From NCBI RefSeq assembly GCF_003334815.1, contig NZ_QOWO01000071.1: a stretch of DNA of 5,879 nt; one strand, 5' to 3'. Below, in pieces: positions 3,631 to 5,781 of this stretch (positions are counted from its first letter, which is position 1; every line of letters starts with the position of its first letter). Source of the DNA: Escherichia coli (lineage in GTDB: Bacteria > Pseudomonadota > Gammaproteobacteria > Enterobacterales > Enterobacteriaceae). Under the pieces are notes generated by a model. It had not been told where the DNA came from. It searched no databases and saw only the letters and a program-made list of their open reading frames with translations. Made by a program: the position numbers and the translations under genes.

Positions 3631-5781
3631 ATGGATACTAAAAAGATATTCAAGCACATACCCTGGGTGATTCTCGGAATCATCGGTGCATTCTGCCTCG
3701 CGGTAGTTGCATTACGTCGGGGGGAGCACGTCAGCGCCCTGTGGATCGTGGTCGCCTCTGTGTCGGTGTATCTGGTGGCGTATCGCTACTACAGTCTGTA
3801 CATCGCCCAGAAGGTGATGAAACTCGACCCCACGCGCGCGACGCCTGCGGTTATTAACAACGACGGTCTGAACTACGTTCCGACCAACCGTTACGTGTTG
3901 TTTGGTCACCACTTCGCCGCTATCGCCGGTGCTGGTCCGCTGGTGGGTCCGGTTCTCGCCGCGCAGATGGGCTACCTGCCTGGCACGCTGTGGCTGCTGG
4001 CGGGGGTCGTGCTGGCCGGTGCGGTTCAGGACTTTATGGTGCTGTTTATCTCCTCTCGCCGTAATGGCGCATCTCTTGGTGAGATGATCAAAGAAGAGAT
4101 GGGACCAGTACCGGGGACTATCGCGCTGTTTGGCTGTTTCTTAATCATGATCATCATCCTCGCCGTCCTGGCGCTGATTGTGGTTAAAGCCCTGGCCGAA
4201 AGTCCGTGGGGTGTCTTCACCGTTTGCTCAACCGTACCGATTGCGCTGTTTATGGGTATCTACATGCGCTTTATTCGTCCGGGGCGTGTGGGTGAAGTCT
4301 CTGTCATTGGTATCGTGCTGCTGGTTGCCTCTATCTACTTCGGTGGCGTGATTGCTCACGATCCGTACTGGGGTCCGGCACTGACCTTTAAAGACACCAC
4401 CATTACCTTCGCGCTGATTGGCTATGCGTTTGTTTCCGCACTGCTGCCAGTGTGGCTGATCCTCGCACCGCGCGACTATCTGGCAACCTTCCTGAAAATC
4501 GGCGTTATCGTCGGCCTGGCGCTGGGTATCGTGGTGCTGAACCCGGAACTGAAAATGCCTGCCATGACCCAGTACATTGACGGTACTGGCCCGCTGTGGA
4601 AAGGCGCTCTGTTCCCGTTCCTGTTCATCACCATCGCCTGTGGTGCGGTATCTGGCTTCCACGCGCTGATCTCTTCCGGTACGACGCCAAAACTGCTGGC
4701 TAATGAAACCGACGCGCGTTTCATCGGCTACGGCGCAATGCTGATGGAGTCCTTCGTGGCGATTATGGCGCTGGTTGCTGCGTCCATCATCGAACCGGGT
4801 CTTTACTTCGCGATGAACACCCCGCCTGCTGGCCTTGGCATCACCATGCCTAACCTGCATGAAATGGGGGGCGAGAACGCGCCGATCATCATGGCGCAGC
4901 TGAAAGACGTTACCGCACACGCGGCAGCGACCGTCAGCTCCTGGGGCTTCGTGATTTCGCCAGAGCAGATCCTGCAAACCGCGAAAGACATTGGTGAGCC
5001 TTCTGTCCTGAACCGTGCAGGTGGTGCGCCGACGCTGGCGGTAGGTATCGCTCACGTGTTCCACAAAGTGCTGCCGATGGCTGACATGGGCTTCTGGTAT
5101 CACTTCGGTATTCTGTTCGAAGCACTGTTCATCCTGACCGCGCTGGATGCGGGTACCCGTTCTGGCCGCTTTATGCTGCAAGACCTGCTGGGTAACTTCA
5201 TCCCGTTCCTGAAAAAAACCGACTCTCTGGTTGCCGGTATCATCGGTACTGCGGGCTGTGTGGGTCTGTGGGGCTACCTGCTGTATCAGGGCGTGGTCGA
5301 TCCGCTGGGCGGCGTTAAGAGCCTGTGGCCGCTGTTCGGTATTTCCAACCAGATGCTGGCAGCCGTAGCGCTGGTACTGGGCACCGTTGTGCTGATTAAG
5401 ATGAAGCGCACCCAATACATCTGGGTAACTGTTGTTCCGGCTGTATGGCTGCTTATCTGCACCACCTGGGCGCTGGGCCTGAAACTGTTCAGCACCAACC
5501 CGCAGATGGAAGGCTTCTTCTACATGGCAAGCCAGTACAAAGAGAAGATTGCTAACGGTACTGACCTGACGACGCAGCAGATTGCCAACATGAACCACAT
5601 CGTTGTGAACAACTACACCAACGCAGGTCTGAGTATTCTGTTCCTGATTGTGGTGTACAGCATCATCTTCTACGGTTTCAAAACCTGGCTTGCGGTGCGT
5701 AACAGCGACAAACGTACTGACAAAGAAACACCGTACGTTCCAATCCCGGAAGGCGGCGTGAAGATCTCTTCGCACCACTAA
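3631..5781 (+). CDS. btsT: CstA-family high-affinity pyruvate/H+ symporter BtsT (YjiY), 716 aa from the ATG at 3631 (in-frame alternative ATG at 3616 would give 721 aa)
   Basis: Long ORF encoding a very hydrophobic polytopic membrane protein with many TM segments and CstA-like architecture. The MDTKKIFKHIPWVILG... N-terminus and 716-aa length match my recollection of E. coli YjiY/BtsT. It is divergent from tsr and preceded by BtsR repeats and a CRP site. Neither candidate ATG has a strong SD. Confidence 0.9.
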   Translation: MDTKKIFKHIPWVILGIIGAFCLAVVALRRGEHVSALWIVVASVSVYLVAYRYYSLYIAQKVMKLDPTRATPAVINNDGLNYVPTNRYVLFGHHFAAIAGAGPLVGPVLAAQMGYLPGTLWLLAGVVLAGAVQDFMVLFISSRRNGASLGEMIKEEMGPVPGTIALFGCFLIMIIILAVLALIVVKALAESPWGVFTVCSTVPIALFMGIYMRFIRPGRVGEVSVIGIVLLVASIYFGGVIAHDPYWGPALTFKDTTITFALIGYAFVSALLPVWLILAPRDYLATFLKIGVIVGLALGIVVLNPELKMPAMTQYIDGTGPLWKGALFPFLFITIACGAVSGFHALISSGTTPKLLANETDARFIGYGAMLMESFVAIMALVAASIIEPGLYFAMNTPPAGLGITMPNLHEMGGENAPIIMAQLKDVTAHAAATVSSWGFVISPEQILQTAKDIGEPSVLNRAGGAPTLAVGIAHVFHKVLPMADMGFWYHFGILFEALFILTALDAGTRSGRFMLQDLLGNFIPFLKKTDSLVAGIIGTAGCVGLWGYLLYQGVVDPLGGVKSLWPLFGISNQMLAAVALVLGTVVLIKMKRTQYIWVTVVPAVWLLICTTWALGLKLFSTNPQMEGFFYMASQYKEKIANGTDLTTQQIANMNHIVVNNYTNAGLSILFLIVVYSIIFYGFKTWLAVRNSDKRTDKETPYVPIPEGGVKISSHH
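3939..3946 (+). other. Chi site (5'-GCTGGTGG-3') on the + strand, inside btsT
   Basis: Exact octamer match at 3939-3946. Confidence 0.6.

Follow-up and report, generated by a model that had tools for sequence, protein, structure and literature searches.

Based on the analysis reported here, we suggest that the 5,879-nucleotide stretch of E. coli DNA under study (hereafter, the window) carries three ordinary chromosomal Chi octamers in core genes and that these octamers are very probably, for the most part, by-products of protein encoding. An exact search of both strands for 5'-GCTGGTGG-3' returned three matches, at 1781-1788 (-), where the + strand of the window reads CCACCAGC, at 2184-2191 (+) and at 3939-3946 (+), all of which fall within coding sequence. 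The three octamers are genuine E. coli-type Chi sequences, and finding them is routine. The original prediction had listed the first and the last of these sites, both as exact octamers and with the right coordinates, but its count, made by eye, overlooked the one at 2184-2191 (+). A miscount was the only way in which it had allowed that it could be wrong, and this is what happened.

By its sequence, the window is ordinary E. coli chromosome bounded by the ends of two insertion sequences, IS5 and IS150. In BLAST searches, many complete E. coli chromosomes matched positions 1-5802 with 100% identity. The RefSeq annotation of the 100%-identical genomes, with which the open reading frames of the window agree, gives three genes: lgoT for an MFS galactonate transporter (180-1541, +), tsr for the serine chemoreceptor of 554 aa (1590-3254, -) and btsT (yjiY) for a pyruvate/H+ symporter (3631-5781, +). 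Two of the Chi octamers lie inside tsr and one inside btsT, and lgoT is without an exact match. The counterpart in MG1655 is at 4,589,129-4,594,722, in reverse orientation relative to the window, and lgoT-tsr-btsT DNA is on the chromosome in essentially all of the 5426 complete E. coli genomes. The identity over 1-5802 also places the octamers in an organism whose RecBCD recognizes them, as the RecBCD of E. coli and other Enterobacteriaceae does; the window does not include recBCD.

The original prediction spoke of host assignment, and on such a reading Chi would mark the adaptation of a mobile element or phage to its host and help to identify that host as E. coli. Phages without RecBCD inhibitors do accumulate Chi at a host-like density (PMC3784561), and IS ends flank the window. 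However, the DNA that bears the octamers is the chromosomal lgoT-tsr-btsT region, the IS ends at the window edges contained no Chi in the exact search of both strands, and Chi is common across Enterobacteriaceae (PMC8022716), all of which makes this reading extremely improbable. A mobile or phage element was rejected as the source of the octamers, since every complete E. coli genome has these genes as core genes of its chromosome. In other words, "host" is a misnomer here because the sequence is the bacterial chromosome itself and not a phage or plasmid.

Several features of the window edges can be described separately from the octamers. The left edge (1-77) is the inward-facing end of an IS5/ISKpn26-like element, with the start codon of the transposase at 1-9 (-) and a terminal repeat, ...TTCGCACCTTCC, that ends at 77. 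In NZ_CP154406.1, one of the 100%-identical genomes, the IS5/ISKpn26-like element takes the place of 1035 bp in the MG1655 arrangement, among them the complete lgoR regulator gene, and lgoT beside the IS end has just 102 bp of native upstream sequence left. At the right edge, 5803-5879 is the transposase-distal end of IS150 (TGTACTGACCCCAAAAAG...), and the insertion point is in the btsT terminator hairpin, between AGCCCCGCTTCGG and CGGGGCT, in the interval that separates btsT from yjiX. No complete E. coli genome gave a match across the 5802/5803 IS150 junction, and the best hits ended at 5802. With an IS5 end at one edge and an IS150 end at the other, the window has the appearance of a contig from short reads that broke off at multicopy IS elements. 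Similar GC-rich flanks adjoin three independent IS150 copies (window 5787-5802; L133, 1680-1720; L134, 1680-1716), with TAGCCCCGCTTCGG, AAGCCCCGCATTCG and AAGGCCCCCTTC each standing directly before TGTACTG, and this suggests that IS150 may preferentially target hairpins or sequences resembling terminators.

The reading frames in which the octamers lie are informative about how they may have arisen. The site at 1781-1788 is on the sense strand of tsr, in GCG CTG GTG GAA (Ala-Leu-Val-Glu, from residue 489), and the site at 3939-3946 is on the sense strand of btsT, in CCG CTG GTG GGT (Pro-Leu-Val-Gly, from residue 103). Both share the frame NNG-CTG-GTG-GNN, which joins preferred Leu and Val codons and is the commonest route to a Chi in a gene. 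The site at 2184-2191 is antisense to TCC ACC AGC in tsr (Ser-Thr-Ser, residues 355-357); it depends on a synonymous AGT/AGC change, which would have given rise to the antisense octamer in a single minority lineage.

The density of Chi in the window supports that coding is the main source of these octamers. Dinucleotide-preserving shuffles gave a mean of 0.25 Chi, and three or more in 1/200 shuffles, so that the three observed are over-represented relative to composition. This excess is largely gone under a codon-aware null in which synonymous codons were permuted within each gene, holding the proteins and the codon usage of each gene constant (mean 1.15, P(>=3)=0.087). There are 13 amino-acid contexts in the window in which Chi could be encoded; their expectations add up to 1.154, and the priors of the realised sites under codon usage are 0.23 for PLVG (3939), 0.09 for ALVE (1781) and 0.015 for the antisense STS (2184). 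Only two of the potential contexts are in lgoT, with an expectation of 0.05; tsr alone has two realised sites versus 0.29 expected, a mild excess. According to published figures, E. coli has ~1 Chi in every 5 kb, equal to 0.2 per kb (PMC8022716, PMC3784561). Taken as the null, the genome density gives a lambda of ~1.2-1.3 and P(>=3) of ~0.12-0.14, with the 0.51 per kb of the window corresponding to ~2.5x the genome mean. Genome-wide, Chi is itself over-represented beyond composition, with an O/E of ~2.3 (PMC3784561), and the 50 kb surrounding the locus in MG1655 contain 7 Chi, 5 of which are on the leading strand. Three Chi in 5.9 kb of E. coli core genes are not statistically unusual, and the earlier assertion that the density is "not unusual" holds under both the codon-aware and the genome-density null. 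A special Chi cluster was rejected by the same two nulls (P=0.087 and P ~0.12-0.14, respectively).

Words related to Chi behave in a similar manner. GCTGGCGG and GCTGCTGG are computational candidates for alternative Chi motifs of Enterobacteriaceae (PMC8022716), and each has three copies in the window, the former at 2843-, 3996+ and 5034+ and the latter at 3107+, 3993+ and 4317+. Most of these copies are on the coding strand, and codon usage is the simplest explanation for them. Counting these copies, the window contains 22 Chi-like octamers with one mismatch versus 5.4 expected from shuffles. That 18 of these 22 are on the coding strand of their own gene suggests codon usage as the main cause of their abundance.

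A comparison across species points in the same direction. In a contig scan with a degenerate pattern for the 12-residue Tsr peptide around the 1781 site, at least 123 chemoreceptor genes matched, mostly from Burkholderiales, among the matches listed. Again among the matches listed, the exact Chi octamer was present at the same Ala-Leu-Val-Glu codons in 36 of 123, made up of 35 of the 117 genes from outside Enterobacterales (mostly Burkholderiales) and one of the six from Enterobacterales, the latter being too few to measure conservation within Enterobacteriaceae. The 35/117 outside Enterobacterales, among the matches listed, argues that the octamer at the ALVE codons arises from codon choice, with a GC-rich preference, and an octamer at these codons would thus not be evidence of E. 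coli-type Chi usage. As for Chi in general, GCTGGTGG has been inferred to serve as Chi in almost all Enterobacteriaceae (PMC8022716), and it is equally over-represented in Salmonella (PMC3784561). Because Chi is shared by nearly all Enterobacteriaceae and by Salmonella, and because the octamer also arises by codon choice in unrelated bacteria, the suggestion that its presence supports host assignment stands only in a weak form. What identifies the species as E. coli is the 5.8-kb match, at 100% identity, to complete chromosomes. A Chi count over a few kb is no useful evidence for either species or host.

The octamer alone is sufficient for Chi activity and, on this basis, all three sites in the window would be active. 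RecBCD enters at a double-strand end, unwinds and degrades the DNA, and turns to recombinational repair after Chi. It reads 5'-GCTGGTGG-3' on the 3'-ended strand when it comes upon the octamer from its 3' side; the nuclease is then attenuated and RecA is loaded (PMC10025158, PMC3784561, PMC8022716). The orientation of a site relative to replication determines, in the model proposed here, which RecBCD would read it. Synteny with MG1655 and the GC skew, rather than the isolate's own origin, give the direction of replication used here. In MG1655, oriC is at 3,925,744-3,925,975 and the locus lies ~665 kb clockwise of it, in the clockwise replichore, whose leading strand is the + strand of MG1655. 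Given the inversion of the window, its - strand is the leading one, and the GC skew (-0.040 for the window + strand; +0.026 for the MG1655 + strand over 50 kb) fits this inverted orientation. By this mapping, only 1781(-) is on the leading strand, while 2184(+) and 3939(+) are on the lagging strand.

In this model, replication forks would travel right to left in the window, and RecBCD loaded at a collapsed fork would move left to right, i.e. towards oriC. The 1781(-) site, in the usual leading-strand orientation, would be the only one read by RecBCD returning towards oriC from a collapsed fork. The 2184(+) and 3939(+) sites would act only on RecBCD that travels right to left, away from oriC, for instance after entry at the opposite end of a two-ended break. 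Polarity describes Chi statistically over the genome, and a single site can be active without it. That two of the three sites have the minority orientation is unremarkable in so small a sample. The original prediction took Chi on both strands as consistent with E. coli-type usage; a two-strand distribution is not typical of Chi, which across the genome strongly favours the leading strand (PMC10025158, PMC8022716). Of the three sites, a single one is oriented in this way.

Comparison among E. coli strains separates the 2184 site from the other two. MG1655 has the 1781 site (L002, 28123, +) and the 3939 site (L002, 25964, -) but lacks the one at 2184, where an A makes the Ser357 codon AGT instead of AGC and gives ACTGGTGG. 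A 36-bp query around each Chi was compared by BLAST with the 5426 genomes; the identity bands mix changes in the octamer with flanking polymorphisms, and the one interpretable 36-mer count is the exact-match figure for 2184, with 99 of the 5383 E. coli genomes in which the region is present (~2%). The octamers were also read directly in nine further strains plus L001 and MG1655. The 1781 octamer was present in 9 of 10 sampled strains, with one loss via a synonymous CTG>TTG change, the 3939 octamer in 7 of 8, with one loss via a synonymous GTG>GTT change, and the 2184 octamer in 2 of 10. The gains and losses seen among strains were all scored as synonymous third-position changes. Such all-synonymous variation is the pattern expected for sites that drift with silent polymorphism; shared ancestry limits what the pattern can show, as the sampled strains are only 1-2% apart in DNA sequence. 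Judged from these comparisons, the 2184 site is a rare minority, strain-specific silent-SNP allele (AGC/AGT).

The presence of 1781(-) and 3939(+) in MG1655 and in most of the sampled divergent strains could also mean that these two sites, at least, are individually kept by selection as repair or recombination signals that protect this core segment, rather than being codon by-products. We consider this unlikely. Each site has been lost in some strains by a single synonymous change, with no compensation seen within the sampled loci, and the total fits the codon null (P=0.087). The orientation of 2184(+) and 3939(+) is not the preferred one, and at the ALVE chemoreceptor codons, among the matches listed, the octamer was in one of six genes from Enterobacterales as against 35 of 117 from elsewhere. 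Moreover, in strains that differ by 1-2% in their DNA, sharing of a site may be plain shared ancestry. Given the genome-wide over-representation of Chi beyond composition, some selection for Chi in core genes is likely in general, and it is possible for 1781 and 3939, which most sampled strains have kept; the three sites are nevertheless best accounted for, for the most part, as by-products of coding.

The 1781(-) and 2184(+) octamers face in opposite directions within tsr, at a distance of 396 bp. As an opposed pair ~400 bp apart, they could in principle form a local recombination hotspot that shapes the exchange of tsr alleles in the lineage, and the surroundings of tsr are structurally variable, with hpa, TRAP or lgo genes as flanks. 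However, the 2184 allele is a single synonymous SNP with a frequency of ~2%, and each of the two octamers is read by RecBCD from outside the pair, so that no protected interval is specially bracketed; we find a hotspot of this type barely credible. Similarly, it is very unlikely that the synonymous G at 2184, as a new opposed Chi in tsr, measurably alters local RecBCD processing and the endpoints of recombination tracts in ~2% of E. coli. If it did, the G at 2184 would be a natural case of Chi gain by silent mutation with a population-genetic footprint.

The tsr region differs among strains in further respects. Relative to MG1655, the window has a 9-bp indel at 1682-1690 (GCTGATGTT), in the Gln-rich C-terminal linker of Tsr. 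Tsr has 554 aa in the window and in all sampled non-K-12 strains versus 551 aa in MG1655, and K-12 appears to be the deviant. The spacer between tsr and btsT contains, at 3403-3418 and 3448-3474 of the window, a perfect CRP-type palindrome, TGTGAtatgaaTCACA, and a direct repeat, CCGCTCA ... ACCGCTTA, which we take to resemble the BtsR/YehT box upstream of btsT (yjiY) and list as a candidate only. The structure around tsr varies among E. coli strains (window 3255-3630; L008, 3614-4156; L011, 3615-4156; L003; L009). Some strains have an additional ORF of ~540 bp between tsr and btsT, and in others genes for a TRAP transporter or hpa (4-hydroxyphenylacetate) genes flank tsr instead of lgoT or btsT.

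The sites described here share with the E. coli Chi (crossover hotspot instigator) recognized by RecBCD the same exact octamer, the same organism, the location in core genes and CTG-GTG as the commonest coding frame, and their density in the window is within the normal range of ~0.2 per kb (PMC3784561, PMC8022716). There is no essential difference between them; two of the three sites in the window are on the lagging strand and one is a rare allele that is absent from K-12. The Chi sites of the window are already known biology, and the only correction concerns their number, which is three and not two. Nothing sets them apart from the approximately one Chi per 5 kb found across the E. coli genome. 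The significance of the finding is very small: it confirms a normal E. coli chromosome in which Chi occurs at an ordinary rate, largely via preferred Leu and Val codons, and the sole small curiosity is the third site, a rare allele that owes its Chi to a silent SNP.
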